A DNA stretch of 64,000 bases from Dehalococcoidia bacterium (GTDB lineage: Bacteria > Chloroflexota > Dehalococcoidia > Lucifugimonadales > JAPUKM01). Where the stretch lies: assembly GCA_965248865.1 (NCBI GenBank), contig CBDFKP010000002.1, forward strand, positions 376,610-440,609, written 5' to 3'. Under the pieces are notes generated by a model. The model ran no database searches. It was not told where the DNA came from and was given only the letters and a program-made list of their open reading frames with translations. The position numbers were made by a program, and so were the translations under genes. Numbering within the stretch: position 1 is the stretch's first letter; each line of letters starts with the position of its first letter. Below, piece by piece: positions 3,761-51,733 of this stretch.

Positions 3761-4672
3761 CTAGGAAGAGCTTCCGGCTCCTGCCGCCTCTCTGGCTTCC
3801 TTCTGATCATGGGTCTCTCTGCGCCACTCCCGTTTCAGGTCGTCTCTGACGCTGACCCGGAGCCTTCCCATCTCTGGGATCTCCATCTCTATGGCATCGC
3901 CATCCTGCATGGGCCCCAGGCCGCGGTGGTTGGTCCCGCAGGCGAAGATGTCCCCCGGGTCAAGGGTAAGGACGTGGCTGGCCCACGCAAGGCTTGCCGC
4001 AATCGAGTGTGCCATGTCGCTGGTGGGGTAGTCCTGGCGCAGCTCTCCGTTCACCCACAGCTTCACGGGCAGGCTCTGCGGGTCTGATATCTCATCGGCG
4101 GTGACCAGGTAGGGGCCTATGGGGGCGAAGGTGTGCCACGACTTGCCGGGGTAGAAAGAGTCCATGGGGGGAGCGCCCAGTCCCCGGGCCGATCCGTCCA
4201 GGAAGTTGAGGTAGCCGAAGACGTAGTCGTAGGCGTCGTTCTCCCGGATCTCACTGGTGGTCTTGCCAATGACGATCCCAAGCTCTGCCTCGTGCTCGAA
4301 GACGCTGGCCTCGGCGCTGGGGATGACAATGGTATCCCCCTGGCCGATGGTGGAGCTGGGCGACTTCAGGAAGGCGTTGAGGGGGTTCGGCTCCGAAAGG
4401 TGGCCAGATTCCATGTAGTTGCCGGCCATGCAGATCATTTTGCCGGGCCGGGGCACCGGCGCTCGTAGCCGCACCTGGCCCAGGGGCGTACCCTTGGACG
4501 AGCGCGCCGCCTCTTCCAGGCGTCCCTTGTACTGGTCCCACCTCGCTATCAACCCGCTCATCAGGTCGTGTGGGCCCAGGTGCGGTATATCCTGGACCGC
4601 GGCGGAGACATCCACCACGTTTCCATCCTTCACCACCCCCAGGACAAAGTCGTTGAAATAGACAAGCTTCAC
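3761..4672 (-). CDS. fumarylacetoacetate hydrolase (FAH) family protein, tandem paralog
   Basis: Collinear with the preceding protein (MKLVYFNDFVLGVVKDGNVVDV vs MRLLFYNDFIPGVLKDGNVVGI; FEHEAELGIVIGK). GTG start. Confidence 0.85.
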   Translation of the reverse strand: MKLVYFNDFVLGVVKDGNVVDVSAAVQDIPHLGPHDLMSGLIARWDQYKGRLEEAARSSKGTPLGQVRLRAPVPRPGKMICMAGNYMESGHLSEPNPLNAFLKSPSSTIGQGDTIVIPSAEASVFEHEAELGIVIGKTTSEIRENDAYDYVFGYLNFLDGSARGLGAPPMDSFYPGKSWHTFAPIGPYLVTADEISDPQSLPVKLWVNGELRQDYPTSDMAHSIAASLAWASHVLTLDPGDIFACGTNHRGLGPMQDGDAIEMEIPEMGRLRVSVRDDLKREWRRETHDQKEAREAAGAGSSS

Positions 4673-4744
4673 GGTATTCCCTCCTCCCGTCCACCCATGG
4701 TGGACGATGCCGGATTTCCCGGCCTTGTGGTTGTCGAGGCTATC

Positions 4745-6040
4745 CTATCGGAGAATCGGCCGTATTGCCACCGTCTCCTCCCGTTTGGGACCGGTGGAGA
4801 TGAGATCGACGGGCACGCCGATCAGCTCCCCCAGACGGTCGACGTACCGGCGGGCGCCCGCCGGTAGCCTATCCAGGTTTGTTGCGGATGCGGTGGGCTG
4901 GTCCCAGCCGGCGAACTCCTCATACACCGGCTGACACTGCTCCAGCACCTCGTTATTGGTGGGGAAGTGGGGGAGCACGTTGCCGTGGATGCTGTAGCCG
5001 GTGCATACCTTGATTGGGGAGATGCCGTCAAGCACGTCCAGGCGGGTCAGCACCACGGAGGTAAAGCCGTTGACCTGAGCGCTGTACCGCGCCGCCACCG
5101 CATCAAACCAGCCGATGCGCCGCGCACGTCCTGTAGTGGTCCCGTACTCCCACGCCAGCTCCCTGATTTTCTCGCCTACGTCGTCGGTGAGCTCCGTCAC
5201 CAGTGGGCCGGCGCCCACCCGCGTGGAGTAGGCCTTGAAGATGCCGGCCACCCCCTCGATTGCGTGAGGTGGAATGCCCGTGCCGGAGGAGGCTCCACCA
5301 ATGGATGGGGAGGAGGATGTGACGAATGGATAGGTGCCGTGGTCGATGTCCAGGAGAGTGCCCTGTGCCCCCTCCAACAGAACGGTCTTCCCGTTGGCCA
5401 GGGCATCATGGAGAACAACCTCGGTTGGACGGATGTAGGGAGCAAGCTGCTCGCCCCACTGGAGGCACTTCTCCAGCAGCTCCTCCACTGAAATCGGCTC
5501 GCCTCCGTAAACCTTGGTGATCAGTGCGTTCTTCTGCTCGACCACGTGCATCAGTCGGGGAAGGAATCGCTCCTCATCGTTGACCTCCAGCAGGTCCCCC
5601 ACGCGAATGCCCACGCGACCCACCTTGTCCATGTAGGCCGGGCCGACACCCTTGCCGGTGGTGCCGATGGCCTGGCCTCCCTTGGAGCGCTCCTCCAGGG
5701 CGTCCAGGGTAACGTGATAGGGCATGATCAGGTGGGCGCGGTCGCTGATGTAGAGCCGGCTGGTATCCACTCCCCGCTCCTGGAGCCCCTGGATCTCACC
5801 CAGCAGCACCTCCGGGTCCACCACAACGCCGTTAGCTATTACGCAGGTGACCTGGGGCCAGAAGATGCCTGAGGGGACTAGATGGAAAGCGAACTCTCCC
5901 ATCTCGTTGATGACGGTGTGTCCGGCGTTGTTTCCCCCGGAGAACCTGACCACGTAGTCGGCCCGCTCCGCAAGGAAGTCCACCACCTTCCCCTTCCCCT
6001 CATCGCCCCACTGAGCACCGATCACGGCATATGCTGGCAT
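4745..6040 (-). CDS. purA: adenylosuccinate synthetase
   Basis: GAQWGDEGKGK P-loop, GGNNAGHT and TTGKGVGPAY motifs. ATG at 6038-6040 gives the canonical MPAYAVIGAQWGDEGKGK N-terminus. Confidence 0.93.
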   Translation of the reverse strand: MPAYAVIGAQWGDEGKGKVVDFLAERADYVVRFSGGNNAGHTVINEMGEFAFHLVPSGIFWPQVTCVIANGVVVDPEVLLGEIQGLQERGVDTSRLYISDRAHLIMPYHVTLDALEERSKGGQAIGTTGKGVGPAYMDKVGRVGIRVGDLLEVNDEERFLPRLMHVVEQKNALITKVYGGEPISVEELLEKCLQWGEQLAPYIRPTEVVLHDALANGKTVLLEGAQGTLLDIDHGTYPFVTSSSPSIGGASSGTGIPPHAIEGVAGIFKAYSTRVGAGPLVTELTDDVGEKIRELAWEYGTTTGRARRIGWFDAVAARYSAQVNGFTSVVLTRLDVLDGISPIKVCTGYSIHGNVLPHFPTNNEVLEQCQPVYEEFAGWDQPTASATNLDRLPAGARRYVDRLGELIGVPVDLISTGPKREETVAIRPILR

Positions 6041-37076: not shown

Positions 37077-38939
37077 ATGAAGAAGAACCTACAGCCGCTC
37101 ACACCGGCGGCGCTCTACGCCAGGGTCTCCAGCGAGCGGCAGGACGTGGACCTGTCCGTGTCCGCCCAGCTCAGGGCGCTCAAGGACTACGCCAAGGCCA
37201 ACGGCTACTCCGTAGCCCGCGAGTACGTGGACGAGGCCGAGAGCGGACGCGTCGCCGACAGGCCCCAGTTCAGGGAGATGATCGAGGAGGGGAGCAAGCC
37301 AAAGGCCCCGTTCCAGGTCATCTTGGTCTGGAAATTCTCCCGCTTCACCCGAAAGCGGGAGCACGCTGTGGCGTTCAAGTCGATGCTCCGGCGCAAAGGT
37401 GTGAGGGTCGTCTCCATCACCGAACACGCCGACGACTCCCCCACCGGCAAGCTCATGGAGGCCATCATCGAGAGCGTGGACGAGTTTTACAGCGAAAATC
37501 TTGCCGAAGACGTTACGAGGGGAATGAGGGAGGCGGCTTCGAGAGGCTTCTTCCTCGGCTCCAAGGCCCCCTTCGGCTACAAACGAGTCAAGGTCAGCGA
37601 CGGAGCCAAGGAGCGTCCCACCCTGGAGGTTGACCCTGCCACCGCTCCAATAGTGAAGGAAATCTTCGAGAGCTCGCTCAGCGGCTACGGCCTCAAGGAG
37701 ATATGCAGGACCCTGAACGACCGGGGCATCACCAACAGGGGCAAACGCTGGTACAAGGGAGGACTCCACTACCTGCTGACCAACGAAGCCTACACCGGAA
37801 CCGCCGTCTGGGGCAGGACGGCGAAGGTAGAGAAGGCCCAGGACCCGGTGCGAGTGGAGGGAGCATGGCCCGCGCTGGTGTCTAGGGAGCTGTTCGACGC
37901 CGTTCAGGAGGCAATGCGGGACCGAGCACCGAAGGTGCGAAGACCCGCGAGAGTGGGGAGCAGGTTCCTGCTGAGCGGTCTGCTGAAGTGTGGAGTGTGC
38001 GGCAGGCCCTACTCCGGCCAGGGGGCCAAGAGCGGGCAGTTCGCCTACTACATCTGCGGCACACTGTTCAGGGAAGGCGCGGGGACATGCAGCGCCCGCT
38101 ACCTGAACACTCCCAGGGTGGAGGAGTTCGTCGTCGAGAAGATCAGGGAGCGGATTCTGACCGAGGAGACCATCGTTGAGTTGGTGAAGCTGGTGGCCGA
38201 GGAGATCGACGCTATGGCCGGTGAGCTGTCCGGCAGGCTGGAGGTCATCGACGCCGAGCTAGGGGACGTGAGGAAGCGTCTTGAGCGGCTCTACGAGGCC
38301 CTTGAAACGAGCGAGTTGATGTTGGAGGTCCTGTCGCCCCGAATCTTCTCTCTGAGGCACCGTGAGGAGCAGCTTGAGGCTGCGCGTGACGACGCCGCAA
38401 CTCAGTTGGAGCAGCGAAGGGTGGAGTTGCCGACCACCGAGGAGATCAAGGGGTACGTGGCGGACTTCCGGGAGTTCTTGCAAGAAGGGACGTTCCCTGA
38501 GCGCAAGGCGCTCATCCGCAACTTCGTGGAGGGCATTGAGGTCACCGGAGACGAGGCCGTTCTGACGTACACCATCCCCATGCCCAGCGATGGAGTGACC
38601 TCGGAATCGGCCTCGGTTCTTGATTTCGTCCAGTCCGGCCCGCCAGGCGTCCCAGGTGGGCGGCCGTTTTCTCAGTTCTGGACTTGCGAGATGAGAGAGA
38701 GCATGGTGGCCAATGCTGAACGGATGACTCAGTGCTCACAGGGAGTATGGAGCAGCGGGATTGACCAGTCGACAAACAATCCTCTCCGTGAAGTCTTACT
38801 GCAAGATCGGAGGGGTAGCGGATGTCATTTCATTGAGTTTCAAGAAAGTGTGACCACCACCGCGGCTGAGACGCTGTATCAGGAGAGACAACGGCAATGC
38901 GATGGTCGGCGCAAGCTCTTTATCGCAAGCTCTTTATAG
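37077..38939 (+). CDS. large serine recombinase (Rec1); last ~98 codons look like read-through past the att-like site
   Basis: Resolvase catalytic domain (ALYARVSSERQD...VWKFSRFTR), recombinase domain and Zn ribbon (CGVCGRPY...YYICG). Collinear and mostly identical with the 49020-50678 product up to ...VLDFVQSGPP. Confidence 0.88.
   Translation: MKKNLQPLTPAALYARVSSERQDVDLSVSAQLRALKDYAKANGYSVAREYVDEAESGRVADRPQFREMIEEGSKPKAPFQVILVWKFSRFTRKREHAVAFKSMLRRKGVRVVSITEHADDSPTGKLMEAIIESVDEFYSENLAEDVTRGMREAASRGFFLGSKAPFGYKRVKVSDGAKERPTLEVDPATAPIVKEIFESSLSGYGLKEICRTLNDRGITNRGKRWYKGGLHYLLTNEAYTGTAVWGRTAKVEKAQDPVRVEGAWPALVSRELFDAVQEAMRDRAPKVRRPARVGSRFLLSGLLKCGVCGRPYSGQGAKSGQFAYYICGTLFREGAGTCSARYLNTPRVEEFVVEKIRERILTEETIVELVKLVAEEIDAMAGELSGRLEVIDAELGDVRKRLERLYEALETSELMLEVLSPRIFSLRHREEQLEAARDDAATQLEQRRVELPTTEEIKGYVADFREFLQEGTFPERKALIRNFVEGIEVTGDEAVLTYTIPMPSDGVTSESASVLDFVQSGPPGVPGGRPFSQFWTCEMRESMVANAERMTQCSQGVWSSGIDQSTNNPLREVLLQDRRGSGCHFIEFQESVTTTAAETLYQERQRQCDGRRKLFIASSL
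38616..38665 (+). other. att-like site S1 (hybrid: consensus left arm, divergent right arm)
   Basis: GTTC TTGATTTC GTCC AGTC | CGGCCCGCCA | GGCGTCCCAGGTGGGCGGCC. Homology to Rec2 ends at 38646. Confidence 0.55.
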
Positions 38940-39005: not shown

Positions 39006-40019
39006 ATGAGATGGATCGGAACCATAGCAACCTCTCTGGTCGTGATAATTATGGCCGTTCCCACCCTGGGGATCGTGCTTTTCTTTGTCCCCGTAGGGTT
39101 GTGGCTAAGTGCGTTGTTCGCCGGTGTCCCGGTGAGCCTGAGCACCTTGATGGGGATGCGTATGCGTAAAGTAAGCCCCAACGCCATCGTCCCGTCCCTG
39201 ATTTCTGCCACCAAGGCAGGTCTAGAGCTCGACATCAACGAGATGGAGGCTCATCACTTGTCCGGTGGATCCGTAGGACGAGTAGTCGCCGCCATGATTT
39301 CTGCCGAAAAGGCGACCATAGAGTTGCCTTGGCGACAAGCCACTGCCATTGACCTAGCCGGGCGTGACGTATTGGAGGCGGTTCAGACCAGCGTCAATCC
39401 CAAGGTCATCAATACACCCAATGTTTCAGCCGTGGCTAAGGACGGCATTCAGCTCATCGCCATTGCCCGGGTAACGGTCCGGGCCAACCTGGACCGGCTT
39501 GTGGGCGGTGCAGGCGAGGAGACCATTCTAGCGCGTGTGGGGGAGGGTACTGTGTCTGCCATCGGCTCGGCTGGCAGTCACAAAGAGGTATTGGAGAATC
39601 CGGATCAGATATCGAAACGGGTGCTGGCGGGTGGGTTGGACCAAGGCACGGCTTTTGAGATACTGTCTATCGATATCGCCGACGTGGACGTTGGAAAGAA
39701 CATCGGTGCTCAGCTTCAGATAGACCAGGCAGAGGCTGACAAGCAGATCGCCCAGGCCCAGGCTGAGCAACGCAGGGCCGCCGCAGTGGCTGCAGAGCAG
39801 GAAATGGTGGCCAAGACTCAGGAGATGCGCGCCCTGGTCGTAGAGGCTGAAGCTGAAGTGCCCAGGGCTATGGCAGAGGCCTTCCGATCGGGTAACCTGG
39901 GAATCATGGACTATCACCGAATGCGCAATATTCAGGCCGATACCCAAATGAGGGAGAGTCTAGGGCAAGATCGGGAACAGGGGCTAGGGGGCCAATCTCC
40001 CGGTGGAAGTGCTTCATAG
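39006..40019 (+). CDS. floA: flotillin-like protein FloA (SPFH domain, UPF0365/YqfA family)
   Basis: Near-collinear with FloA hallmark stretches: [77 protein letters not shown]. Confidence 0.9.
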
Positions 40020-40663: not shown

Positions 40664-40957
40664 TCAGCCTCCGTTCGATCCGACCGCTGAGACTGCTGTG
40701 TAGCCGACGAACATCTTCCACTGTTTGCCGTACAATCTAACCACCAACTCAAAGACGGTTCTGCCTACCGTCAACTTAGGCCCACCAGACTTGACAAAAT
40801 CAAGAACTTTCAGCTTGAGATTCAAGCTGGCGGTATAGTAGGTGCTCGGCCTCCAGCAGCAGTAGTGCTCCGGGGCCACGTCCCCAACCAACCTTCCAGT
40901 CGGGCACGGATCTTGCCATTGACTTCGGTCGGTAGTATGTGTAACGATATTACACAC
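40664..40957 (-). pseudogene. LSR gene 3'-tail relic (probably the detached tail of Rec3)
   Basis: The minus strand reads ...LKVLDFVKSGGPKLTVGRTVFEL..., matching the conserved Rec tail VLDFVQSGPP / STVKSGGPDWTKSRT. Confidence 0.55.
40758..40807 (+). other. att-like site S4 (both arms near consensus)
   Basis: GTTC TGCCTACC GTCA ACTT | AGGCCCACCA | GACT TGAC AAAATCAA GAAC. The 14-mer GGCCCACCAGACTT (40779-40792) is identical to 50577-50590. Confidence 0.6.
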
Positions 40958-40983
40958 TCACCTTAGCCCGGTTGGAGGTCGAT

Positions 40984-41259
40984 ATGGCCAGAGTGCAGTT
41001 GGTAATGGCGGACAATGACCGAGACCGCTTTGTTCACCAGGCGCGGCAGTAGGGCATGTCCCTCAGCGCCTGGCTGCGTGAAGCTGCGCACGAGCGCCTC
41101 GAAAAGCGCCAGATCGTCAAGCTATTCCAGTCACCTGAGGACGTTGAGGAGTTTTTCAGGTCATGCGCTACGCTGGAAGGCCCAGAGACGGAGCCGGACT
41201 GGGATGAACACTTGCGCGTCATGAGCGAGTCGCGCGGCCGAGGAGTTGCCAGAACGTGA
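40984..41259 (+). pseudogene. vapB: RHH-type VapB antitoxin with in-frame TAG at codon 23
   Basis: MARVQLVMADNDRDRFVHQARQ*GMSLSAWLREAAHERL, with TAG at 41050-41052. Its stop overlaps the vapC start. Confidence 0.65.
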
Positions 41260-41651
41260 TTTTCGTCGACACCAACGTCTTCATGTACGCCGTAGGACGC
41301 CCCCACGTTCTCCAGACAAATGCCCAAGGATTCTTCGTCGAAGCTAACCGAAGTGGCACACCGCTGTGCACTTCAGCAGAGGTCATGCAGGAACTGGCCC
41401 ATGCGTACTTGCCCATCGGAAGGCTGCAAACCTTCGATGCAACGCTGGACTTGATAGCAAGCGCCGGAGTTGAGGTTTGGCCGCTGGAGGAGGCGGACGT
41501 GGCTCTGGCCCGTCAACTCCATGAGCAATATCCCGCGTTACAAGCCCGAGACCTCTGCCACCTAGCCAGTTGTCGAAGGCGTGGAGTCCGAGAGGTCAAG
41601 ACCTTTGACCAAACATTCGCGGCCGTATCCAGCAATCCATCAATCCCATAG
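41256..41651 (+). CDS. vapC: PIN-domain toxin VapC
   Basis: MIFVDTNVFMYAV, SAEVMQEL and ARDLCHLA give the PIN acidic residues in order. 131 aa. Confidence 0.82.
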   Translation: MIFVDTNVFMYAVGRPHVLQTNAQGFFVEANRSGTPLCTSAEVMQELAHAYLPIGRLQTFDATLDLIASAGVEVWPLEEADVALARQLHEQYPALQARDLCHLASCRRRGVREVKTFDQTFAAVSSNPSIP

Positions 41652-41699
41652 AGGAGAGAGAAACAGGGTTGGCCGCAAGCTAACTGCCTGAATGTAAGT

Positions 41700-44597
41700 A
41701 TGCCACGCCAGACCGAGCCGAACGCGAACAACGCACTGGGCGACCTGCTGCGAGGCATGATGCCGGGCTGTGAAGTCCGCTCCGAGAACACCCAGACCTT
41801 CACCGACCATCCGGGCCGCCACGCCGATGTGCTGATAGCCGCGCCGGGGCGCTCGCCAGTAGTCGTCGAAGCCGAATATGCGCCGGCCTCTGAGGTCGAA
41901 AAGGACGCCTCCGAAAGGCTGGGGCTTCACGTGCAGGGACAACCCCGAACTGTCGAGGCTGCTATCGCAGTTCGCTACCCGCAGGTTGTAGAGGACGCCT
42001 ATGACTTGCGCCCGGTCCTCGCCGAATCCCGTCTTTCCTACTATGTCCTGCACCAAGACGGCAGCCGCTTCCCTGAATCGGGATGGCTTGAGGGTTCGGC
42101 AACCGATCTGGCTGACCTTGGACGACTGGTATCCATACCACAGAAAGCCGTGGAACAGGCGGCCGATACCCTCGAGCAAGGCATTGGGCAGGCCGCCAAC
42201 CTGTTGGAGGACATGGCCAAGCTCCGCCCCAATGTCACTCCTGTCATCGCTCGGTTGCTGGGAATGAGCGACGTTTCCCAGACCCGCCGCATGGCCTGCG
42301 CCATCATCGCTAACGCCATGATCTTCCACCAACGCATCGCAGGGATGCACCAGGAGGTGAAACCTCTGCGGCTGGTGTGCGGCCCCAATGTTGCAGACCC
42401 CCAGGGTGAGGTACTGGCGGCCTGGGAAGATATCCTGAAGATCAACTACTGGCCCATCTTTGCCATAGCCAAGGACATCTTGGAGCAGCTTCCCGGAGAC
42501 GTTGCCACTAGCATCTTGCGGGAACTGTTGGAGACTGCCCAGGAAGTTGAAGCAACCGGCGTCGACAACGCCCACGACCTGACAGGCCGCATATTTCAAC
42601 GGCTTATCGCTGATCGGAAGTATCTGGCTACCTTCTACACGCTTCCAGCCTCGGCCGCGCTGTTGGCCCGGCTCGCCGTGGCCAAGATGGATTCCGTGGA
42701 CTGGTCCGACGCCGGGGCCATCGGCAGGCTGCGCATCGGAGATTTTGCCTGTGGCACCGGTGCCCTGCTGTCGGCGGTGTACGAGCAGGTTGCATCCCGC
42801 CATGAACGCGCTGGTGGCGACTCCACATCGCTGCATCCCGTGATGATGGAGGAGGTCCTATATGGCTGCGACGTCATGCCCTCGGCCATTCACATCACCG
42901 GCTCCACCCTGTCCGGTATGCGGCCCAACGTGGGATTCAATCAGTCCCGTCTCTACACCATGCCCTACGGAAAGCAGAAGGACAGCACGGTGAAGATAGG
43001 TTCCCTGGAGTTACTCCAAGCCTCCACAGCCTTGACCTTGTTCAATACCAGCGACCCAGCTCTGCGCACTGGCAGCGTGGGAGAGGAGACTGCTGCCCAG
43101 ATCAACGTGGACATCCCGGACGCGAACTTTGACCTGGTGATAATGAATCCACCCTTCACCAGGGCAACCAACCATGAAGGTGCCCATGCGGATATCACCA
43201 ACCCCGCCTTCGCCGCATTTGACGCCACGCCCGCTGACCAAACGGAGATGGGACACCGGATCAACCAGTTGGGGAAGGACTCCTGCTACCACGGCAACGC
43301 TGGAATCGCTTCAGCATTCGCTGCGCTGGCCCACAAGAAGCTCAGGTTCGGTGGAGTCCTTGCCCTGGTATTGCCACTGTCGGCAGCCGCTGGTCTTTCA
43401 TGGCAGGGGTTCAGGGAAACGTTGGCCAAGAACTATACCGACCTTACCGTGTTGAGCATCGCGGCTTCGGACAACGATCACCTGTCGTTCTCAGCCGATA
43501 CTGGCATGGCCGAGTGCCTGGTCATAGCTCGCAAGGTCAAGCAAGCTGAGGCACCAACGGGACGAGGGCACTTCATATCCCTGGGCCGCCGTGCCCAAGG
43601 GTTTGCCCATGCAACTTCACTGGCGATGAACGTCTCCAGTCCTCAAAAGGCGAGACGGGTTGAGGATGGGCCTTATGGCGGCACCGCTTTAATGATCGGT
43701 GACGAGCTGGCCGGCGACAGCATGACCGTCCCGGTGCAGACGGACGGGGCATCATGGGGTGCGGTCCGTCTGTCCGACTTATCGCTGGCTCAGGCAGCTT
43801 TCGCATTGGCTAAATCCAAGCTATGGCTTCCCGGCAGCCACTCGGCGTTGGACGTGAAAGTGGCTCCGTTGAACAAGACATCTAAACTCGGCTTGGTTGA
43901 TCGAGACATCACGGGACCACGACCTCGCGGCCCATTCGACAAGATGGCCCCAACTCCTACAGCTACTTATCCGTCTCTGTGGAATCACGATGCTAAGAAC
44001 GAGACTCGGATGGCCTGCCAGCCAGACTCCCAGCTCCGGGTCAGGTCGGGAATGGAGGAGAAAGCCGCAATTGCCTGGGCTACGGCCAGCCGCGCTCACG
44101 TCAATCGCGATTTCAGGTTCAACTCGCAGCCGTTGACCGCAGCGTTCACTGAGCAGGAAAGCATGGGTGGCAGAGCGTGGCCCAACGTAAGGTTTCCAGA
44201 CAGCCGGTTCGATTACGCGTTCACGCTGTGGTCTAACTCTACGCTCGGGCTGCTGCTGTATTGGTGGCACTCAAACCGGCAGCACAGTGGTCGAGGCACC
44301 ACTACTATCAGAAACGTTGAATCACTGCCCGTCCTGGACCTCCACGCCCTCAGCGACGAGCAGCAGCGCACCTCTGAGGCCATCTTCAACGAACTGAGAG
44401 ACATGGAGTTGAAGCCCGCCTATCTTGCCGACGCCGATCCCAACCGGGCGCTGCTGGACCGCAGGATCGTCTGCGATCTTCTGGGCTTCGACGAGGATGT
44501 GTACGAGGGAGTTCGGAGGCTGTCGGCCAAATGGTGCGCCGAGCCGTCGGTGCACGGCGGGAAGGCGCGGCCAAAGGCTGCCCAGCTCGTGATCTAG
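41700..44597 (+). CDS. fused N6-adenine DNA methyltransferase with nuclease-like N-terminus and TaqI_C-like C-terminal domain (type IIG restriction-modification-like)
   Basis: SAM motif I DFACGTGALL (42741-42770) and motif IV NPPF (43146-43157). The C-terminal pattern FTLWSNSTLGLLLYWWH...IRNVESLPVLDL is typical of MTase target-recognition domains. The N-terminal HADVLIAAPGRSPVVVEAEY could be a PD-(D/E)xK-like core. Confidence 0.75.
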   Translation: MPRQTEPNANNALGDLLRGMMPGCEVRSENTQTFTDHPGRHADVLIAAPGRSPVVVEAEYAPASEVEKDASERLGLHVQGQPRTVEAAIAVRYPQVVEDAYDLRPVLAESRLSYYVLHQDGSRFPESGWLEGSATDLADLGRLVSIPQKAVEQAADTLEQGIGQAANLLEDMAKLRPNVTPVIARLLGMSDVSQTRRMACAIIANAMIFHQRIAGMHQEVKPLRLVCGPNVADPQGEVLAAWEDILKINYWPIFAIAKDILEQLPGDVATSILRELLETAQEVEATGVDNAHDLTGRIFQRLIADRKYLATFYTLPASAALLARLAVAKMDSVDWSDAGAIGRLRIGDFACGTGALLSAVYEQVASRHERAGGDSTSLHPVMMEEVLYGCDVMPSAIHITGSTLSGMRPNVGFNQSRLYTMPYGKQKDSTVKIGSLELLQASTALTLFNTSDPALRTGSVGEETAAQINVDIPDANFDLVIMNPPFTRATNHEGAHADITNPAFAAFDATPADQTEMGHRINQLGKDSCYHGNAGIASAFAALAHKKLRFGGVLALVLPLSAAAGLSWQGFRETLAKNYTDLTVLSIAASDNDHLSFSADTGMAECLVIARKVKQAEAPTGRGHFISLGRRAQGFAHATSLAMNVSSPQKARRVEDGPYGGTALMIGDELAGDSMTVPVQTDGASWGAVRLSDLSLAQAAFALAKSKLWLPGSHSALDVKVAPLNKTSKLGLVDRDITGPRPRGPFDKMAPTPTATYPSLWNHDAKNETRMACQPDSQLRVRSGMEEKAAIAWATASRAHVNRDFRFNSQPLTAAFTEQESMGGRAWPNVRFPDSRFDYAFTLWSNSTLGLLLYWWHSNRQHSGRGTTTIRNVESLPVLDLHALSDEQQRTSEAIFNELRDMELKPAYLADADPNRALLDRRIVCDLLGFDEDVYEGVRRLSAKWCAEPSVHGGKARPKAAQLVI

Positions 44598-44696
44598 TGT
44601 CGGTGATCCCGCCGAAGCCAGAGAAGGCGCTTTCCATTCACCGGTGCTGACATGTAGTGGCTGCGCACCGTATATGCACGTTGCTACTATTGATGC

Positions 44697-46406
44697 ATGG
44701 CTCTCACCGAACGACAGCTTCTCGACTCCCTCAGCAGGATGCCTTTCATCGACTCAGCAGAGTTGGCAGGCATCCTGGGGGAGCCTCACACGACCATCCA
44801 CCGCGCCCTAACCGGCCTGCTGGCCGCCGGCGTGGTCGGCCGAGTGAGTCACGGGACTGCCCACCTGCCGTCGAGCCAGAGGTACTACCTGACGGCCAAC
44901 GGCATCGGGGAGGCCGCCGGGATACTCGGCTTCGACACCCCATCGGACTTCGTGCGAATCTACCCGGTGTCCAGGGAGTGGCTGGCGCTGCTCATCCGCC
45001 GGATGGACGCGGTGGCCGCCGTCTATCGTCTCGCCGCCTCACTCTCCCCCGGCATCGACGGCCTACGGTCGCACGTGGAGTTCCACCGCCGGGGCCGCTT
45101 CGACGCCACGATCACCCTCCACGACGGGCGCAGCTTCGGAATGGTACGCCAGAGCCTGGCTCTTCGTCGGCGCTCGCTCTACGACCGGCTGAGGGCCATA
45201 GCGGAGTACGACTACACGCGCCGCCCTGACACGATCCTGGTCCTGACCCCCAGCGTCTGGGAGCAGAGACTGACAACGAGGTTCTGCATGGAGCTGAACC
45301 TTGAAGGCTCTTACGTCGGCGAGGAGTCTCGGGACGTACTCGAAAGACGGGACTCCCACGTCTGGCAGAAGACCTCAGGCCTGTTCAGTGGCTCGTACTA
45401 CACCCTCGATTTCGTGAGCTCACAGGGCGACGCCAGCGGAAGACTCTGCACCGAGTCCCCGAATCGGAAGCGGGCATCGATACCCCATCCTGAGCGGATG
45501 GTGCGGGCTGCGCCGACCTTCGGCATCAGCCCATCGGAGAAGCGGACCCTCGACCTAGTTACCGACCACCCTATGACCCCCCGTGAGCACCTGGCTCGCT
45601 GGCTCGGCGTTTCGGAGGGACGGGTTAGCCAGATGATGCATAACCTCGTCGATACGTGGGGCTTGATGGAGCGACAGGGAAAACGTGGAGACACGCGCTA
45701 CACCCTGTCCACCGAGGGCATCCGCTACATCACCCACCGGGACCGCGCCCAGCTCCCCACCACGCAGGGCATCTGGAGCACGGCCCTCACGACCGACCGG
45801 CAGGACCGGAGACGACACGTAGGCCATCGGATCGACACGTGGGCGCGTCAGACGAAGCACGCCGACGGCATCACATGGTTCCTCTCAAAGTTTGAGGCGG
45901 AGACCCGGGCCGATTCCGACAGCGAGCTGCTCTGGTCTGTCCCCACCGCGAGGTCCGACCGGGCCTACAACTGGGGCGATTCCGCTATTGCTCCCGACGC
46001 CGTGGGGAAGGTGATTGCACAGGGCCTCGACGTACCGTTCTACCTCGAGTACGAGCTGCGGGCCAGGCATCCCCAGGGAGTCATTGCCCGCCTGAGTCCC
46101 TACACGAGCTACTACTGGTCCACCGAACCAGGGGAAGACCAGCCCCCGTTCCCCACCACCCTGTTCGTCGTGGACACAGAGGAGGTCGAGGCCACCTACG
46201 TGCGCACGGCGGCCAGGATGAGTCTGATGTCGCTGCCCATACTCGTGTCCTGCATGCCCGTCTTGTCCACAACAGGGATACTGGGGCGGTCATGGCATCC
46301 CCTCTGGGAGCCGGAATCCCCGCGACTGGCCCTGTCAGGGCTGAGCGCCTACCAGTGGGACCCACTCTACCACCGGATGCGTCAGCGTCCTGTAGGGGGG
46401 GAATAG
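44697..46406 (+). CDS. duplicated wHTH / Replic_Relax-like protein
   Basis: Two wHTH modules (LSRMPFIDSAELAGILGEPHTTIHRALTGLLAAGVV and DHPMTPREHLARWLGVSEGRVSQMMHNLVDTWGLM). Each is followed by a PDA...FYLEYE-type segment as in replication-relaxation family proteins. Confidence 0.6.
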   Translation: MALTERQLLDSLSRMPFIDSAELAGILGEPHTTIHRALTGLLAAGVVGRVSHGTAHLPSSQRYYLTANGIGEAAGILGFDTPSDFVRIYPVSREWLALLIRRMDAVAAVYRLAASLSPGIDGLRSHVEFHRRGRFDATITLHDGRSFGMVRQSLALRRRSLYDRLRAIAEYDYTRRPDTILVLTPSVWEQRLTTRFCMELNLEGSYVGEESRDVLERRDSHVWQKTSGLFSGSYYTLDFVSSQGDASGRLCTESPNRKRASIPHPERMVRAAPTFGISPSEKRTLDLVTDHPMTPREHLARWLGVSEGRVSQMMHNLVDTWGLMERQGKRGDTRYTLSTEGIRYITHRDRAQLPTTQGIWSTALTTDRQDRRRHVGHRIDTWARQTKHADGITWFLSKFEAETRADSDSELLWSVPTARSDRAYNWGDSAIAPDAVGKVIAQGLDVPFYLEYELRARHPQGVIARLSPYTSYYWSTEPGEDQPPFPTTLFVVDTEEVEATYVRTAARMSLMSLPILVSCMPVLSTTGILGRSWHPLWEPESPRLALSGLSAYQWDPLYHRMRQRPVGGE

Positions 46407-46527
46407 ATAGGGCCGATGTGTCCCTATCTCCCCGGTATGCTGTCTGGGGCTGGAAGTTGGGATAACCGGAGCGATTTCTGAGGTCTGTCGACGCCCAAAC
46501 TGCCCTGTTTTAGCTATGAACCGGGGT

Positions 46528-46630
46528 TGACGTGTCGCCTGACGTGTCATGGAGCAAATTGGGATTCTGCGCTAAAATACAGGGGCCGAAGAATTGTAGT
46601 TTTGCAACCCATGACGAGGGCTGACGTGTC
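46528..46630 (+). promoter_or_regulatory. three direct copies of TGACGTGTC around the start of the excisionase-like gene
   Basis: Copies at 46528-46536, 46540-46548 and 46622-46630. A TAAAAT -10-like hexamer lies at 46573-46578. Confidence 0.4.
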
Positions 46631-47117
46631 AACCGATAGAGAAGAAAAAGCTAGGCATGAGCCTGTCCGCTGGGTCTCGAAAACAGAGGCGGCGGAGGAG
46701 CTGGAGATATCCCTTTCAACTCTCGATCGGAAGATCAGGAAGGGAGAGGTCGAGGTTGTCCGTGAGGGCCGCCGGGTCTATGTGCGGATGCACGGGTCGG
46801 AGTATCTGAGCGACCACGAGCTGCTGCGCCGGGCCATCGCCAGGGAGGATGAGCTTCAGCGGACAGTGCGGGAGTTGGAGCGGAGCGTGTCGGACTTGGA
46901 TCTTAGAGCATCCGAGTTGGAGCGGGAGCGGGACGAGGCCAGGGAGTCCGCATCCGCCAGCAGACGGCCTTACGAGGAGCTGGAGAAGGCGTACCGGAAG
47001 GAGATCGCCGAGCATAAGGAGACGAAGGAAGTGGTCATCGCAGTACGCGTGACCGCCATCGTGCTGTTGGTGCTTCTGGTCGCCAGCGTTCTCGTGTGGT
47101 GGTTTGTGCTGAGGTAG
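46611..47117 (+). CDS. excisionase-family HTH protein with coiled coil and C-terminal TM helix
   Basis: VSKTEAAEELEISLSTLDRKIRKGEVEVVREGRRVYV (HTH_17-like), then a heptad-rich acidic/basic segment, then VIAVRVTAIVLLVLLVASVLVWWFVL. Confidence 0.65.
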   Translation: MTRADVSTDREEKARHEPVRWVSKTEAAEELEISLSTLDRKIRKGEVEVVREGRRVYVRMHGSEYLSDHELLRRAIAREDELQRTVRELERSVSDLDLRASELERERDEARESASASRRPYEELEKAYRKEIAEHKETKEVVIAVRVTAIVLLVLLVASVLVWWFVLR

Positions 47118-47574
47118 GGCGTCCACGCGTTGTGCTGTGCCTGGACCACCTGCAGAGGCAACGGACGGGGAGCACGGCTCACGGAACCCGGTTCGGGGCC
47201 TATCCCCAGTTCCCGTCACTTTGTACAGCGGCATTTTGTCCACTTTTGTAGGTAGCATTGTCCTCTGCCGCCCGATTTGCCAACCGGCGTTTTGTTCACT
47301 CTCGTAGCTAAGACTGTTCTGTGGCCGTGGAAGGAGCACCAGAATCAAATTGCTTGCTCCGATGTCGCAGACTGCTTGGTTTCCCCTCGATTTCAGCTAG
47401 GAAATCACCAAACCTACAACTCGTCCACAAACTCAAACTCCTGTACACGTGTATGACACCACCATAGGCTCCGCGATTCTCCTGCCCTGTGAGGGGGGCT
47501 GCGTGCGAGCCCTGCCAGACCCGTCGTTGCATCCGCAACAACTTCGTCTATCCACTGGGAACCAGTGTTTAGCC

Positions 47575-47603
47575 TTGACATGATTAACGGCACACGTTAA
47601 TAT
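47575..47603 (+). promoter_or_regulatory. sigma70-type promoter with embedded palindromic operator upstream of higB
   Basis: TTGACA (47575-47580), 17-nt spacer, TAATAT (47598-47603). Inverted repeat ATTAACG-N5-CGTTAAT (47583-47601). Confidence 0.6.
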
Positions 47604-47605
47604 CA

Positions 47606-47890
47606 TTGGCGGTGGATAGATTTCGAGATGGCGACGCTCAACGCCTCTTCGCCGGACAAACGGTTCGGCGCTTACCGCCTGACATTCAACGCAGGGCGAG
47701 GATGCGGTTACAACGGGTGATTGCAGCTACGGCGTTGACCGACCTTCGGGTGCCACCATCCCATCGGCTGGAAGCATTGCGGGGAGACCGGGCTGGGCAG
47801 TTCAGCATCCGCATAAACGACCAGTGGCGGGTGTGCTTCATCTGGACAGACCAGGGCGCGATGGAGATAGAAATCACTGACTACCACTGA
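47606..47890 (+). CDS. higB: HigB-type (RelE/ParE superfamily) toxin
   Basis: RFRDGDAQRLF...LRVPPSHRLEALRGDRAGQFSIRINDQWRVCFIW...EIEITDYH is the canonical HigB pattern. The start may be a leaderless GTG at 47612. Confidence 0.85.
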   Translation: MAVDRFRDGDAQRLFAGQTVRRLPPDIQRRARMRLQRVIAATALTDLRVPPSHRLEALRGDRAGQFSIRINDQWRVCFIWTDQGAMEIEITDYH

Positions 47891-47901
47891 GGAGGACATC
47901 A

Positions 47902-48195
47902 ATGACTAATACGGTCGAACCGATTCACCCTGGAGAGCATCTGTCAGAGATCATGGAGGAGCTGGGCATCACCCAGTATCGCCTGGCAAAGACCATAGGA
48001 GCGCCGCCTATACGCATCCATGACATCGTGCATTGTCGGAGGTCCATCACTGTGGACACTGCGCTGAAGATCGGAAAGGCTCTGGGAACAACTCCGGAGT
48101 TCTGGTTGAATCTTCAGCGGATGTACGACCTGGACGTAGCCCGGGCCACTACCGACGTAAGTGGGATTGAGCCTCTGGTCAAGGCGTCTGCATGA
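47902..48195 (+). CDS. higA: HigA-type antitoxin (XRE HTH)
   Basis: IHPGEHLSEIMEELGITQYRLAKTIGAPPIRIHDIVHCRRSITVDTALKIGKALGTTPEFWLNLQ is the canonical HigA pattern. Confidence 0.88.
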   Translation: MTNTVEPIHPGEHLSEIMEELGITQYRLAKTIGAPPIRIHDIVHCRRSITVDTALKIGKALGTTPEFWLNLQRMYDLDVARATTDVSGIEPLVKASA

Positions 48196-48956
48196 TGCAG
48201 GAATCGCGGTTGCCCCCGAACCTGCGAGGTGGCGCAAGTTTCAGCCACTTTAATCCCCAATCCAGTCTGCTGGCCAATGGCCTAGACTTTCTAGTCAGCG
48301 CCGCGGAGTTTGCATCACGTGATGACGAACGAAGTTGGAAATATGCCGTCTTGCATCTGTGGTACGGGCTGGAATTGCTCCTAAAGGCGAGGTTAGAGCG
48401 TGAGCACTGGTCGCTGCTATTTTCCAACATTGACCACGCAGATCGGCTGAAGCTCATCAGCGGCGACTTCTTATCAGTAGATTCTAACCAAGCCTATAAA
48501 CGTCTCAAGCAGATTTGCGACATCGAGATAGACCCTTCGGACTGGAAACACTTGATTGCACTGCGGAATCGAAGCAACCGCATCAGGCATCATGTTGCTG
48601 AATACAACTCCATACAGGTCAAGTCAATGGTGTGGAGGTGTATGAACATCGGTCTTGCATTTTGTGAATCACAACAGATGCAAGAGGACAGTAGAACAAT
48701 TCAAAGGCAGTTCTATAAAGTTGGCTCGCTTTTGAAGGGGTTTGACGATTTTGTCAATGACCGGTTGAAAGTCATTTCGTTGCACCCTGATTTCGACCCC
48801 GATGTAAAATGCATGGAGTGTTGGCAAACTACTTGTGTCATTGATGCCAACGGAATCCTGTGTCAGTTTTGTGGGGTAGAGATTGATGCTGAAACCCTAA
48901 ACCAGTGGATGGCGGAGATAGAATTAGACGCCTCGGACAGTGCAGAACACCAATAG
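48192..48956 (+). CDS. hypothetical protein with HEPN-like Rx4-6H motif and C-terminal CxxC...CxxC Zn ribbon
   Basis: ATG overlaps the higA stop (ATGA). LIALRNRSNRIRHH (48564-48593) fits the HEPN RNxxxH-type motif. CMEC...CQFC lies at 48810-48872. AT-richer than neighbours. Confidence 0.6.
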   Translation: MMQESRLPPNLRGGASFSHFNPQSSLLANGLDFLVSAAEFASRDDERSWKYAVLHLWYGLELLLKARLEREHWSLLFSNIDHADRLKLISGDFLSVDSNQAYKRLKQICDIEIDPSDWKHLIALRNRSNRIRHHVAEYNSIQVKSMVWRCMNIGLAFCESQQMQEDSRTIQRQFYKVGSLLKGFDDFVNDRLKVISLHPDFDPDVKCMECWQTTCVIDANGILCQFCGVEIDAETLNQWMAEIELDASDSAEHQ

Positions 48957-49019
48957 GCGAATGCCGCAGATCAGGACCAATGTGACTAGAAAGGGATGAC
49001 AAATAGGGAGGAAGACTAA

Positions 49020-50678
49020 ATGAAACATAAGCAACCCCTAACACCCGCGGCCCTCTACGCCAGGGTGTCCAGCGACCGTCAGGACGTGGACCTGTCCGTG
49101 TCCGCCCAGCTCAGAGCGCTCAAGGACTACGCCAGAGCCAACGGCTACTCCGTGGCCCGCGAGTACGTGGACGAGGCCGAGAGCGGCCGCGTGGCCGACA
49201 GGCCCCAGTTCCGGGAGATGATTGAGGAGGGCGGCAAGCCCAACGCTCCCTTTGAGGTCATCTTGGTATGGAAATTCTCCCGCTTCACCCGCAAGCGGGA
49301 GCACGCCGTCGCTTTCAAGTCCATGCTGCGGCGCAAGGGCATCCGCGTCGTGTCCATCACCGAGCACGCCGACGACTCCCCGACCGGCAAGCTCATGGAG
49401 GCCATCATCGAGAGCGTGGACGAATTTTACTCAGAGAATCTTGCGCAGGAGGTCGTCCGTGGTATGCGGGAAGCCGCATCACGAGGCTTCTTCCTCGGCT
49501 CCAAGGCCCCCTTCGGCTACAGGCGGGTCAAGGTCAGCGACGGAGCCAAGGAGCGTCCCACCCTGGAGGTTGACCCTGCCACCGCTCCGGTGGTGAAGGA
49601 GATATTCGAGAGTTCGCTCAGCGGCTACGGCCTCAAGGAAATATGCAGGACCCTGAACGACCGGGGCATCACCAACAGGGGAAAGCGCTGGTACAAGGGA
49701 GGACTCCACTACCTGCTGACCAACGAAGCCTACACCGGAACCGCCGTCTGGGGCAGAACCACCAAGGTAGAGAAGGCCCAGGACCCGGTGCGAGTGGAGG
49801 GAGCATGGCCCGCCCTGGTGTCTAGGGAGCTGTTCGATGCCGTGCAGCAGGCGATGCGGGACCGTGCCCCGAAGGTGCAGAGGCCCGGTAGAGTGGGGAG
49901 CAAGTTCCTGCTGAGCGGTCTGCTCAAGTGCGGGGTGTGCGGCAGGCCCTACAGTGGCCAGGGGGCCAAGAGCGGCCAGTTCGCCTACTACGTCTGCGGG
50001 ACATTGTTCCGGGAGGGAGCGGGGACGTGCAGCGCACGCTACCTGAACGCCCCCAGGGTGGAGGACTTCATTGTTGAGAAGATACGGGAGCGAATTCTCA
50101 CCGAGGAGACCATCGTGGAGCTGGTGACCCTGGTGGCGGAAGAGATCGACGCAATGGCCGGTGAGCTGTCCGGCAGGCTGGAGGTCATCGAGGCCGAGCT
50201 AGGGGACGTGAGGAAGCGTCTTGAGCGGCTCTACGAGGCCCTTGAAACGAGCGAGTTGACGTTGGAGGTCCTGTCGCCCCGAATCTTCTCGCTGAGGCAC
50301 CGTGAGGAGCAACTGGAGGCTGCGAGAGAGGACGCCGAGACCCAGCTTGAGCAGCGGAGGGTTGAGCTTCCGACCACCGAGGAGATCAAGGGGTACGTGG
50401 CGGACTTCCGGGAGTTCTTGCAAGAGGGGACGTTCCCCGAGCGCAAGGCCCTCATCCGCAACTTCGTGGAGGGCATCGAGGTGGTGGGAGACGAGGCGAC
50501 GCTGACGTACACCGTTCCCATGCCAAAGGACGGTGTGAAGCGGGAATCGGCCTCGGTTCTCGATTTCGTCCAGTCCGGCCCACCAGACTTTACTGTACTG
50601 CGAACTCGCCTGTTTAGGGCGACCTCTGCGGTGTCCGCTCCCCCTATTGGCGAGTCCTCCGGCGTGGGTATGGAGTAG
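49020..50678 (+). CDS. large serine recombinase (Rec2)
   Basis: Same domain set as Rec1. Its tail VLDFVQSGPPDFTVLRT runs through the att-like site, and the last about 30 codons are antisense to Rec3. Confidence 0.88.
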   Translation: MKHKQPLTPAALYARVSSDRQDVDLSVSAQLRALKDYARANGYSVAREYVDEAESGRVADRPQFREMIEEGGKPNAPFEVILVWKFSRFTRKREHAVAFKSMLRRKGIRVVSITEHADDSPTGKLMEAIIESVDEFYSENLAQEVVRGMREAASRGFFLGSKAPFGYRRVKVSDGAKERPTLEVDPATAPVVKEIFESSLSGYGLKEICRTLNDRGITNRGKRWYKGGLHYLLTNEAYTGTAVWGRTTKVEKAQDPVRVEGAWPALVSRELFDAVQQAMRDRAPKVQRPGRVGSKFLLSGLLKCGVCGRPYSGQGAKSGQFAYYVCGTLFREGAGTCSARYLNAPRVEDFIVEKIRERILTEETIVELVTLVAEEIDAMAGELSGRLEVIEAELGDVRKRLERLYEALETSELTLEVLSPRIFSLRHREEQLEAAREDAETQLEQRRVELPTTEEIKGYVADFREFLQEGTFPERKALIRNFVEGIEVVGDEATLTYTVPMPKDGVKRESASVLDFVQSGPPDFTVLRTRLFRATSAVSAPPIGESSGVGME

Positions 50679-51733
50679 ACGATGGCGGCCTTGCCGGGCT
50701 TGACCTCGATCTCCTTGACGAAGGAGTGGACGAAGGCCCTGGTCTCGGTAAGCTCGCTGGTTTTCAGGAAGTCGCTCATCTCGGCGGCGAAGGTGGCGAC
50801 AGTGTCGGCGCTGTCCAGGAACTGCCGCCGTTCCGAGAACAGCCCTCTGGCCTCCTCCGCGGCGACCTCCAGCTTCTCCTTGCGCTCCCGGAGTTCCACG
50901 ATGAGGTCCGAAGCCTCGGCCACGTCGACGCTGTCGCTTTTCGCTACGAAGTTCCAGACGCGGCCCAGTTGCTTCTTCACGTCCTCAAGCTCTTCGTCGA
51001 TGGTCTGAAGCCGCTGCCGCTGCTCGTGGGCCACCCCGTCCATCTCCTCGTCCAGCAGCTTCACCAGGTCGCGGATGTTGGACTCGGTGAGGATGTTGGC
51101 CCGAATCTCATCGACGATGAGCTTCTCGAAGGACTTGGCGTTGAGCCTGGGGGTCTCGCAGGCGCCGCTGCCCCGCTTGAGGAGGGAGTGGCAGACGTAG
51201 TAGGTGTACTTACCGCCCTTGGCCTCGGCCGCGGTCATGGCCTTGCCGCAGGTCTCGCACCTGAGCAGACCGCTGAGCAGGTAGGGGCTGGCGGAGCGCC
51301 GTGGGTGGACCTTCTTCGGAGCGCGGGACCCCAGCAGCTTGGTGACCCTTTGGAACTGCCGCCTGGAGACGATGGCGGGGTGTGCGCCCTCGACGCGCAC
51401 GGGCGGCGCGCCGTCCTTCGCGGTTGTTCCCCAGACCAACGTGCCTGTGTAGGCTTCGTTGAGCAGCACGTTGTGGACGGAGGTCTTGGACCACTGCTTT
51501 CCCCTGGGGCTGGCCACGCCCTCGGCGTTGAGGGCCTTGGTCACGTCGAGGGTGCTGCTGCCCTGGAGCACCATGTCGAAGATGCGGCGGGCCACGGCAT
51601 CGGCGGGCGGGTCAAGCTCCAGCTTGGGGCGCTTCTTCGGCCCGTCCTGGACGTAGACCTTCCGGTAGCCGTAGGGGGCGTAGGTGGTGACCCAGAATCC
51701 GCGAGAAGCGGCTTCCCGCATCCCCCGCGCCAC
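50231..51733 (-). pseudogene. large serine recombinase (Rec3), 5'-truncated (catalytic resolvase domain missing)
   Basis: Starts at the equivalent of Rec1/2 residue about 145 (ILAQEVARGMREAASRGFW vs NLAQEVVRGMREAASRGFF), with homology lost at about 51750. Recombinase domain and Zn ribbon (CETCGKAM...YYVCH) are present. Codons beyond ...STVKSGGPDWT are antisense to Rec2. Confidence 0.75.
50556..50605 (+). other. att-like site S2/3, fully symmetric arms
   Basis: GTTC TCGATTTC GTCC AGTC | CGGCCCACCA | GACT TTAC TGTACTGC GAAC. The left arm ends Rec2 (+) and the right arm ends Rec3 (-). Confidence 0.65.

Follow-up and report, generated by a model that had tools for sequence, protein, structure and literature searches.

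A HigBA toxin–antitoxin pair followed by a HEC-08-family HEPN/zinc-ribbon gene in a serine-recombinase element of Dehalococcoidia

Type II toxin–antitoxin (TA) modules of the HigBA/GraTA kind (PDB 6f8s, 4mct/4mcx) encode the toxin first and combine a RelE-fold HigB ending in Asp-Tyr-His (DYH) and an Xre-type helix-turn-helix (HTH) HigA with a palindromic operator overlapping the promoter. In the TAC system of M. tuberculosis (HigB1-HigA1-SecB-like), a HigBA-type pair is followed immediately downstream, in the same operon, by a conserved third gene, which encodes a SecB-like chaperone required for antitoxin function (PMC9098466). Among phage defence proteins, HEC-08 joins a DUF3644 HEPN domain (Anantharaman et al. 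2013, PMC3710099, established DUF3644 as one of the HEPN families) to zinc fingers and acts as a single-gene system (Payne et al. 2024, bioRxiv 10.1101/2024.01.29.577857). It protected E. coli from phages, and the protection was lost on mutating the histidine of its Rx4-6H motif (bioRxiv 10.1101/2024.01.29.577857). HEC-08 sits embedded in helicase-methylase-ATPase (Hma) loci. The HEPN fold and a defence or toxin theme are also found in HEPN-MNT type VII TA systems and in abortive infection (Abi) proteins (AbiV, AbiD/F). Here, we describe a locus in which elements of these systems meet, i.e., higB, higA, and a third open reading frame (ORF3) placed one after another on the forward strand of a 64,000-nt stretch (hereafter the window, to which all coordinates refer unless another locus is named) of the Dehalococcoidia bacterium assembly GCA_965248865.1, contig CBDFKP010000002.1.

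Neither part of this locus is new, and the two are linked facultatively; as a tripartite HigBA precedent, TAC comes closest. HigB and HigA are an ordinary GraT/HigB-type type II pair, for which toxicity and neutralisation are predicted, while ORF3 belongs to the already described family of DUF3644 HEPN plus zinc-ribbon proteins that includes HEC-08, a membership shown at the domain level. The preliminary description of the locus had treated the third gene as unrecognised, which does not hold in view of the HEC-08 report (Payne et al. 2024). It had also proposed a tripartite system, and as an obligate unit this finds no support and seems unlikely, as the co-occurrence of the genes is limited to one clade and is facultative in both directions. 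No description of a higBA + HEPN operon was found in the literature searched.

The window locus shares with HigBA/GraTA modules the gene order, the DYH-ending toxin, the Xre-HTH antitoxin, and a (here predicted) palindromic operator overlapping the promoter, and it differs in the additional downstream cistron and in an apparently leaderless transcript with a GTG start. At its N-terminus ORF3 carries a DUF3644-type HEPN domain, with a Cys4 zinc ribbon behind it, as do HEC-08 (PADLOC PDLC04162), the related candidate PDC-S64, and the DUF3644/EC042_2821 family, and it keeps the motif His as well as the Asn after the Arg position. In contrast to HEC-08, however, it matches the hidden Markov model only over the HEPN domain, has Ser in place of the motif Arg, carries one ribbon instead of three, is 254 aa long (compared with about 300–360 aa), and lies between higA and a serine recombinase gene, not in an Hma locus; by analogy, a defence activity may be predicted for it. 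As regards TAC, ORF3 is a HEPN/zinc-ribbon protein with no SecB match, and the HigBA of the window lineage usually occurs without any third gene. Unlike the HEPN components of HEPN-MNT modules, ORF3 represents a different HEPN family with a fused zinc ribbon and has higA and a serine recombinase gene as neighbours; no nucleotidyltransferase (MNT) domain was found in the element that carries it.

The identities proposed earlier for higB and higA were confirmed. The higB gene (47612..47890, forward strand) starts with GTG and encodes a 92-aa RelE/HigB (GraT-type) toxin, which matched the Pfam HigB-like toxin family PF05015 (E-value 3e-15; 56.8 bits, above the curated cut-off of 27) and PHROG 3066 (8e-28), its best solved relative being PDB 6f8s_B (1e-23). 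In the HigB of P. vulgaris, the C-terminal Asp-Tyr-His is catalytic. The window protein ends in ITDYH, the DYH of which aligned with the end of P. vulgaris HigB (4mct_B) and is kept in all relatives. The higA gene (47902..48195, forward strand), preceded by a GGAGGA Shine-Dalgarno sequence (47891-47896) located 5 nt before its ATG, encodes a 97-aa Xre-type HTH antitoxin/repressor. This protein matched the equivalog TIGR02607 (1e-27; 95.8 bits, cut-off 47.7) and the HTH_3 domain, and its solved relatives are the HigA/GraA-type proteins PDB 3trb, 6f8s_A, and 4mcx (1e-14 to 1e-17). The ratio of nonsynonymous to synonymous divergence (dN/dS) was 0.085 for higB and 0.052 for higA, with dS of about 1.2.

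Directly upstream of higB there is a sigma-70-type promoter (47575..47603, forward strand) composed of the -35 hexamer TTGACA (47575-47580), a 17-nt spacer, and the -10 hexamer TAATAT (47598-47603), which together match 10 of the 12 consensus positions. The perfect palindrome ATTAACG-N5-CGTTAAT (47583..47601, no strand assigned) overlaps the spacer and the -10 element and occurs once in the window (0.04 copies expected). A promoter scan alone would not single out this site, as it gave 2 sites in 2.2 kb where chance predicts 1.5; it is their conservation between loci that raises both promoter and palindrome above the chance level. Among eight loci with all three genes and unrelated upstream flanks, nucleotide similarity begins about 10 nt 5' of the -35 hexamer. 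Moreover, exactly one copy of the palindrome core TAACG-N5-CGTTA was present in 23 of 112 fetched loci, at the same distance directly upstream of higB, and these 23 comprise loci both with and without ORF3; among the fetched loci, none of those lacking this higBA contains the core. Since the core tracks this higBA irrespective of ORF3, it belongs to the higBA module and in all likelihood serves as the HigA operator. The promoter and the palindrome suited to HigA autorepression, both noted in the preliminary description, thus gained support from the comparison of loci, and so did the GTG at 47612: it lies 8 nt after the -10 element, with no space for a Shine-Dalgarno sequence, and the start position (about 8 nt after the -10) is common to the relatives, where it reads GTG, but ATG in L017 and CTG in L006. 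The higB transcript is therefore probably leaderless. As regards L006, a 62-aa ORF was listed for its HigB, and a pseudogene was considered and rejected, because the 92-codon frame is intact and only the start position reads CTG (at about 4402 of that locus), which may represent a rare start codon or a loss of toxin expression.

ORF3 (48192..48956, forward strand), a HEC-08-family protein of 254 aa, comprises a DUF3644-type HEPN domain (approximately residues 23-160) and one C-terminal zinc ribbon. As previously noticed, its ATG overlaps the TGA of higA (a 4-nt overlap, ATGA). The three-gene arrangement proved to be conserved in a clade of relatives. ORF3 has no Pfam or NCBIfam match. The PADLOC models, on the other hand, recognised DUF3644 (2.6e-21), HEC-08 (7.3e-19, residues 24-135), and PDC-S64 (3e-17), all within approximately residues 23-149. 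The HEC-08 model does not align over the ribbon part of ORF3, where one Cys4 ribbon is present, while relatives of ORF3 with the canonical motif (see below) match this model over a longer span and with E-values from 1e-24 to 8e-27. The family of ORF3 consists of 1,473 cluster representatives (50% identity, E-values up to 1e-3), most of them matching residues from about 25 to 235.

The AlphaFold2 model of ORF3, based on an alignment of 72 sequences, reached pLDDT of 90.5 and pTM of 0.86. In this model, an N-terminal domain of helices leads into a long helix, after which come a small beta ribbon and a last helix. The best-probability Foldseek matches of the ORF3 model were HEPN proteins, i.e., TT1696 (1ufb; probability 0.99, TM-score 0.66), AF_0298 (2hsb; 0.92, TM-score 0.67), and AbiV (0.75), although with weak E-values of 0.2-1. 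In the PDB and BFVD, Foldseek found nothing with an E-value below 0.1, and the HEPN fold is indicated by the probability and TM-score ranking only. Sequence searches of the PDB with ORF3 and with the family profile gave generic zinc-finger matches only, and a metagenome scan with the single ORF3 protein gave no match; related loci were found by a profile search of genome contigs with an alignment narrower than the 72-sequence set. Together, the PADLOC matches and the modelled fold bear out the earlier assignment of a HEPN domain and a zinc ribbon to the third protein.

That assignment also included a fit to the Rx4-6H motif, which proved to be no more than formal. The string in question, LIALRNRSNRIRHH, does occur at residues 121-134, and the motif region L124-H134 (LRNRSNRIRHH) is encoded at 48561..48593 on the forward strand. 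In an alignment of 256 family sequences the motif reads R128-N129-x3-H133, with R128 present in 242 sequences, and the near-invariant positions are K65 (256), H133 (255), W73 (255), R104 (253), and N129 (249). ORF3 keeps N129 and H133 (codon 48588-48590), but has Ser at position 128 (AGC, 48573-48575). In all, 13 of the 256 sequences have this Ser, and they correspond exactly to the window protein plus its close relatives (hereafter the Ser128 clade, as opposed to the Arg128 relatives). In each of the 11 clade genes examined, Ser128 is encoded by AGC, despite synonymous sites near saturation. R127, considered as a catalytic Arg shifted by one residue (Rx5H), was ruled out, as it is replaced by L or S in four clade members. 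R125 is invariant in the clade and R130 varies (Q in P0009, L in P0013), whereas residue 132 is basic (Arg or Lys) throughout the clade, in contrast to mostly Gln or Glu in the family.

The zinc ribbon itself (C207-x2-C210-x13-C224-x2-C227; 48810..48872, forward strand) is as previously recognised, except for the spacing: 13 residues separate the two CxxC pairs, and the 17 given in the preliminary description runs from the first Cys of one pair to the first Cys of the other. Its Cys columns are kept in 246-249 of the 256 family sequences. The Ser128 clade has two CxxC pairs (one ribbon) in comparison with six (three ribbons) in 157 of the 242 Arg128 relatives. The clade is monophyletic (100/100), and its stem branch is long, at 1.12 changes per column. 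Across 11 clade genes, the ORF3 dN/dS had a median of 0.18 and a maximum of 0.27 (dS about 1.2), and there were no stops or frameshifts. These values indicate a lineage under purifying selection, i.e., a presumably functional protein with a non-canonical HEPN site. It is doubtful that ORF3 acts as a standard second RNase. Given the Arg to Ser replacement and the loss of two of the three ribbons, it is less likely to be a standard HEPN RNase than an RNA-binding protein or an RNase of attenuated or non-canonical kind.

Intact higB, higA, and ORF3 were found together in the window and in L001, L002-L004, L006, L017, and L074-L076, and these loci correspond to six distinct ORF3 proteins with 59–69% identity to that of the window. 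The spacing between higA and ORF3, -4 nt in the window, is 12 or 18 nt in the relatives. The three genes were encountered in two settings, either just upstream of the recombinase gene in a serine-recombinase element (window, L001, L017) or at a chromosomal position flanked by oligopeptide permease and ABC-2 transporter genes, with no recombinase (L002-L004, L006, L074-L076), and the similarity between the settings is limited to 47570-48916 of the window. Judging from this distribution, the promoter and the three genes make up a 1.35-kb cassette, which has been retained by at least six Dehalococcoidia lineages and has been both inherited and moved as a unit.

A survey of the neighbourhoods of the third-gene homologs, suggested in the preliminary description, gave a divided answer. 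Co-occurrence with higBA holds in the Ser128 clade, where also the earliest branches of the ORF3 tree carry higBA, but higB and higA were absent within 3–5 kb of the gene in all of the approximately 60 Arg128 homolog loci. Even the Ser128 clade includes three lineages without higBA (L077, L005, and P0007). In L077, the gene has a PIG-L gene upstream. L005 lacks exactly the part corresponding to 47120-48252 of the window in an element that is collinear in its other genes (Replic_Relax, HTH_17, the ORF3 homolog, and the serine recombinase), and in place of higBA it has, at 4479-4796, an orphan HI1420-type (PF21716) antitoxin-like gene with no adjoining toxin gene and a 200-nt gap. The HI1420-type antitoxin was considered as a stable alternative partner and rejected, since the sister protein P0007 stands alone behind an insertion sequence (IS) fragment. 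P0007 is an identical 247-aa Ser128 protein occurring on six contigs from several samples (L078-L082), always about 40 nt beyond the 3' end of a DDE transposase fragment of the IS5 type and with IS21 genes nearby. This suggests that the solo gene has spread recently by means of IS.

Viewed from the HigA side, the linkage is equally loose. A search of 401 genomes of the class for HigA gave 30 closest loci (73–88% identity), of which 28 have no ORF3, the only exceptions being the window and L085, which comes from the same metagenome-assembled genome (MAG) as L017. The locus L086 (G287:C7, reverse strand) has the same recombinase element with higBA and lacks exactly the segment corresponding to 48196-49023 of the window. 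It is a natural empty-site version, in which the recombinase gene starts within about 40 nt of the higA stop and shows 87% nucleotide identity to that of the window element. A variable third cargo gene as a general habit of this HigBA lineage was considered and dismissed, as most of the downstream frames are spurious high-GC ORFs; single cases of another third gene are a methylase (L102) and a 301-aa gene of unknown kind (L103). The distribution of loci indicates that the HigBA-ORF3 linkage is facultative from both sides, that the Ser128 clade lost higBA in at least two sub-lineages, and that the element family is a mosaic of interchangeable modules, ORF3 being one of them.

Based on these data, we consider it probable, with some reservation, that the locus combines a usual HigBA pair with a HEC-08-type gene placed under the HigA-repressed promoter, the two being otherwise independent in function and ORF3 acting as an attenuated or non-canonical RNA-directed effector. 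HigB would be a ribosome-dependent RelE-fold mRNA nuclease, and the Xre-HTH HigA would repress the promoter through the TAACG-N5-CGTTA palindrome lying over the -10 element. ORF3 would be a third cistron appended to the autoregulated higB-higA and presumably co-transcribed with it. As the overlap with higA and the short gaps in the relatives leave ORF3 no promoter of its own, it would be made only when the HigA-controlled promoter fires, and its dose may thus be tied to the state of the TA pair, e.g., to de-repression upon HigA degradation under stress or infection. HigBA and ORF3 could each persist without the other. Several observations weigh against such independence. At least six lineages in two contexts have kept the operon order over a divergence long enough to bring synonymous sites close to saturation; the higBA linkage, the Arg loss, and the ribbon loss all fall on the same long stem branch; and on the HigBA tree, the pairs linked with ORF3 group together (3 label changes, compared with 6.7 for shuffled labels, 0 of 500 shuffles giving as few). 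Such patterns are expected if ORF3 is functionally integrated with HigBA, and because one event joined ORF3 to HigBA, changed its active site, and removed two ribbons, this integration keeps some probability. It could take the form of a genuine tripartite system, in which ORF3 is re-purposed as an infection sensor or an RNA-binding adaptor that sets HigB free or guides it, or is a second effector held in check by HigA; we regard it as possible, albeit rather unlikely. In addition to the clustering of HigBA pairs, it would account for a linkage that is apparently ancestral in the monophyletic Ser128 clade and coincides with the R128 and ribbon losses, for the tightly spaced or overlapping cistrons retained in two unrelated settings, and for the constantly basic residue 132. 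It agrees poorly with intact Ser128 genes lacking higBA in at least two sub-lineages (one of them identical on six contigs beside an IS fragment), with the prevalence of the plain pair in the same HigBA lineage, with the absence of any obvious trio-specific feature in HigA or HigB, and with a non-trio HigBA pair (L091) nesting among the trio pairs; moreover, all the correlated changes amount to one evolutionary event in one clade. A more specific variant, i.e., that the single-ribbon Ser128 clade has given up canonical RNA cleavage and was neofunctionalised into the third component of a HigBA abortive-infection module, is unlikely and is put forward only tentatively. The ribbon and the remnant HEPN pocket might then, e.g., bind phage or cellular RNA and so trigger or direct HigB, with HigA setting the dose, and this would mean that a TA pair has domesticated a defence effector as its sensor.

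The opposite possibility, that ORF3 is a catalytically dead, functionless passenger hitch-hiking with an addictive TA pair on mobile DNA, seems improbable to us. The canonical HEPN Arg is indeed lost in every clade member, loss of the motif can mean inactivity according to the HEPN survey (PMC3710099), and L086 demonstrates that the element can dispense with ORF3. A gene that has evolved at the above dN/dS over 11 genes without stops or frameshifts, keeps K65, W73, R104, N129, H133, and the four Cys residues in the clade, and spreads also in the absence of the TA pair does not behave as a mere passenger, however. Alternatively, ORF3 could be a fully active HEPN RNase using R125, R130, or R/K132, so that the operon would encode two independent RNase toxins. 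The same survey admits that families without the motif Arg may employ other conserved basic residues (PMC3710099), every clade member has R125 and a basic residue at 132, and the motif His, whose equivalent is essential for HEC-08 defence, is kept. But R130 is not invariant and R127 is not conserved, and where the gene stands alone, as it does in L077 and L078-L082, a constitutively active RNase lacking neutralisation would not be tolerated unless it were held off in another way, which makes this explanation highly improbable. If the HigBA pair and ORF3 are independent in function and share the HigA-repressed promoter, as we propose, the locus would be a natural example of a defence gene wired into an existing regulatory circuit, consisting of a TA promoter, a 1.35-kb cassette, and a serine-recombinase carrier. 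Versions of the same element with and without ORF3 are available for comparison, and the clade-wide Arg to Ser replacement under purifying selection provides a test case for HEC-08-type action without the canonical HEPN arginine.

The carrier of the window cassette is an integrative element of about 9.8 kb (40779..50590, no strand assigned), delimited by the 14-bp direct repeat GGCCCACCAGACTT at 40779 and 50577 (0.03 expected). Its cargo consists of a PIN/VapC gene (41256-41651), an Eco57I-like methyltransferase fusion of 965 aa (41700-44597) with weak PADLOC matches to mad2 and MTase, Replic_Relax and HTH_17 genes, the trio, and a large serine recombinase gene (49020..50678, forward strand; Resolvase, Recombinase, and Zn_ribbon_recom domains), which starts 63 nt after the ORF3 stop. 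In L001, L005, and L017, this recombinase gene likewise comes after ORF3, and in L086 it comes directly after higA. Based on its annotated content, the carrier is small and rich in addiction and defence genes. Upstream of the element, a near-duplicate serine recombinase gene occupies 37077-38939, and a flotillin-like FloA gene (39006-40019; Pfam 1e-155) lies between this copy and the left end of the element. At the right-hand repeat, the end of the element recombinase gene is overlapped by the 3' end of a convergent recombinase ORF (50231-51733, reverse strand), which has Recombinase and Zn_ribbon_recom domains and no Resolvase catalytic domain in the listed frame.

Arg-bearing relatives of ORF3 in the same bacterial class occupy largely defence or mobile contexts. 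In L022 (a Dehalococcoidia MAG), as well as in L008/L009 (metagenome contigs of unassigned origin), the Arg128 relative is flanked by an SNF2/NOV_C helicase and a DUF1156 methylase, to which DUF499 is added in L008, and stop codons overlap start codons. By their gene order, these are textbook Hma-embedded HEC-08 arrangements. In other loci, the Arg128 relative adjoins a GmrSD enzyme (L024), is placed between a Replic_Relax gene and an AAA_21/AAA_15 ATPase (L020), or adjoins a transposase (L025).

The reported AT-richness of ORF3 in relation to higBA is real, with a GC content of 48.4% against 59.1% for higB, 55.4% for higA, and 61% for the window. A low GC content as a mark of recent acquisition of ORF3 was considered and ruled out, since the whole family shares it. 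The comparison covered relatives such as L018-L025, L007, and L010: in 9 of 10 high-GC loci (Dehalococcoidia MAG contigs mixed with metagenome contigs of unassigned origin) and also in all 11 Ser128-clade genes, the HEPN/zinc-ribbon gene is 9–18 GC points below its flanks. The offset is absent in the low-GC genome L021, in L008, and in the Streptomyces locus L011; elsewhere, it persists despite a long residence (dS about 1.2), which simple amelioration would not predict.

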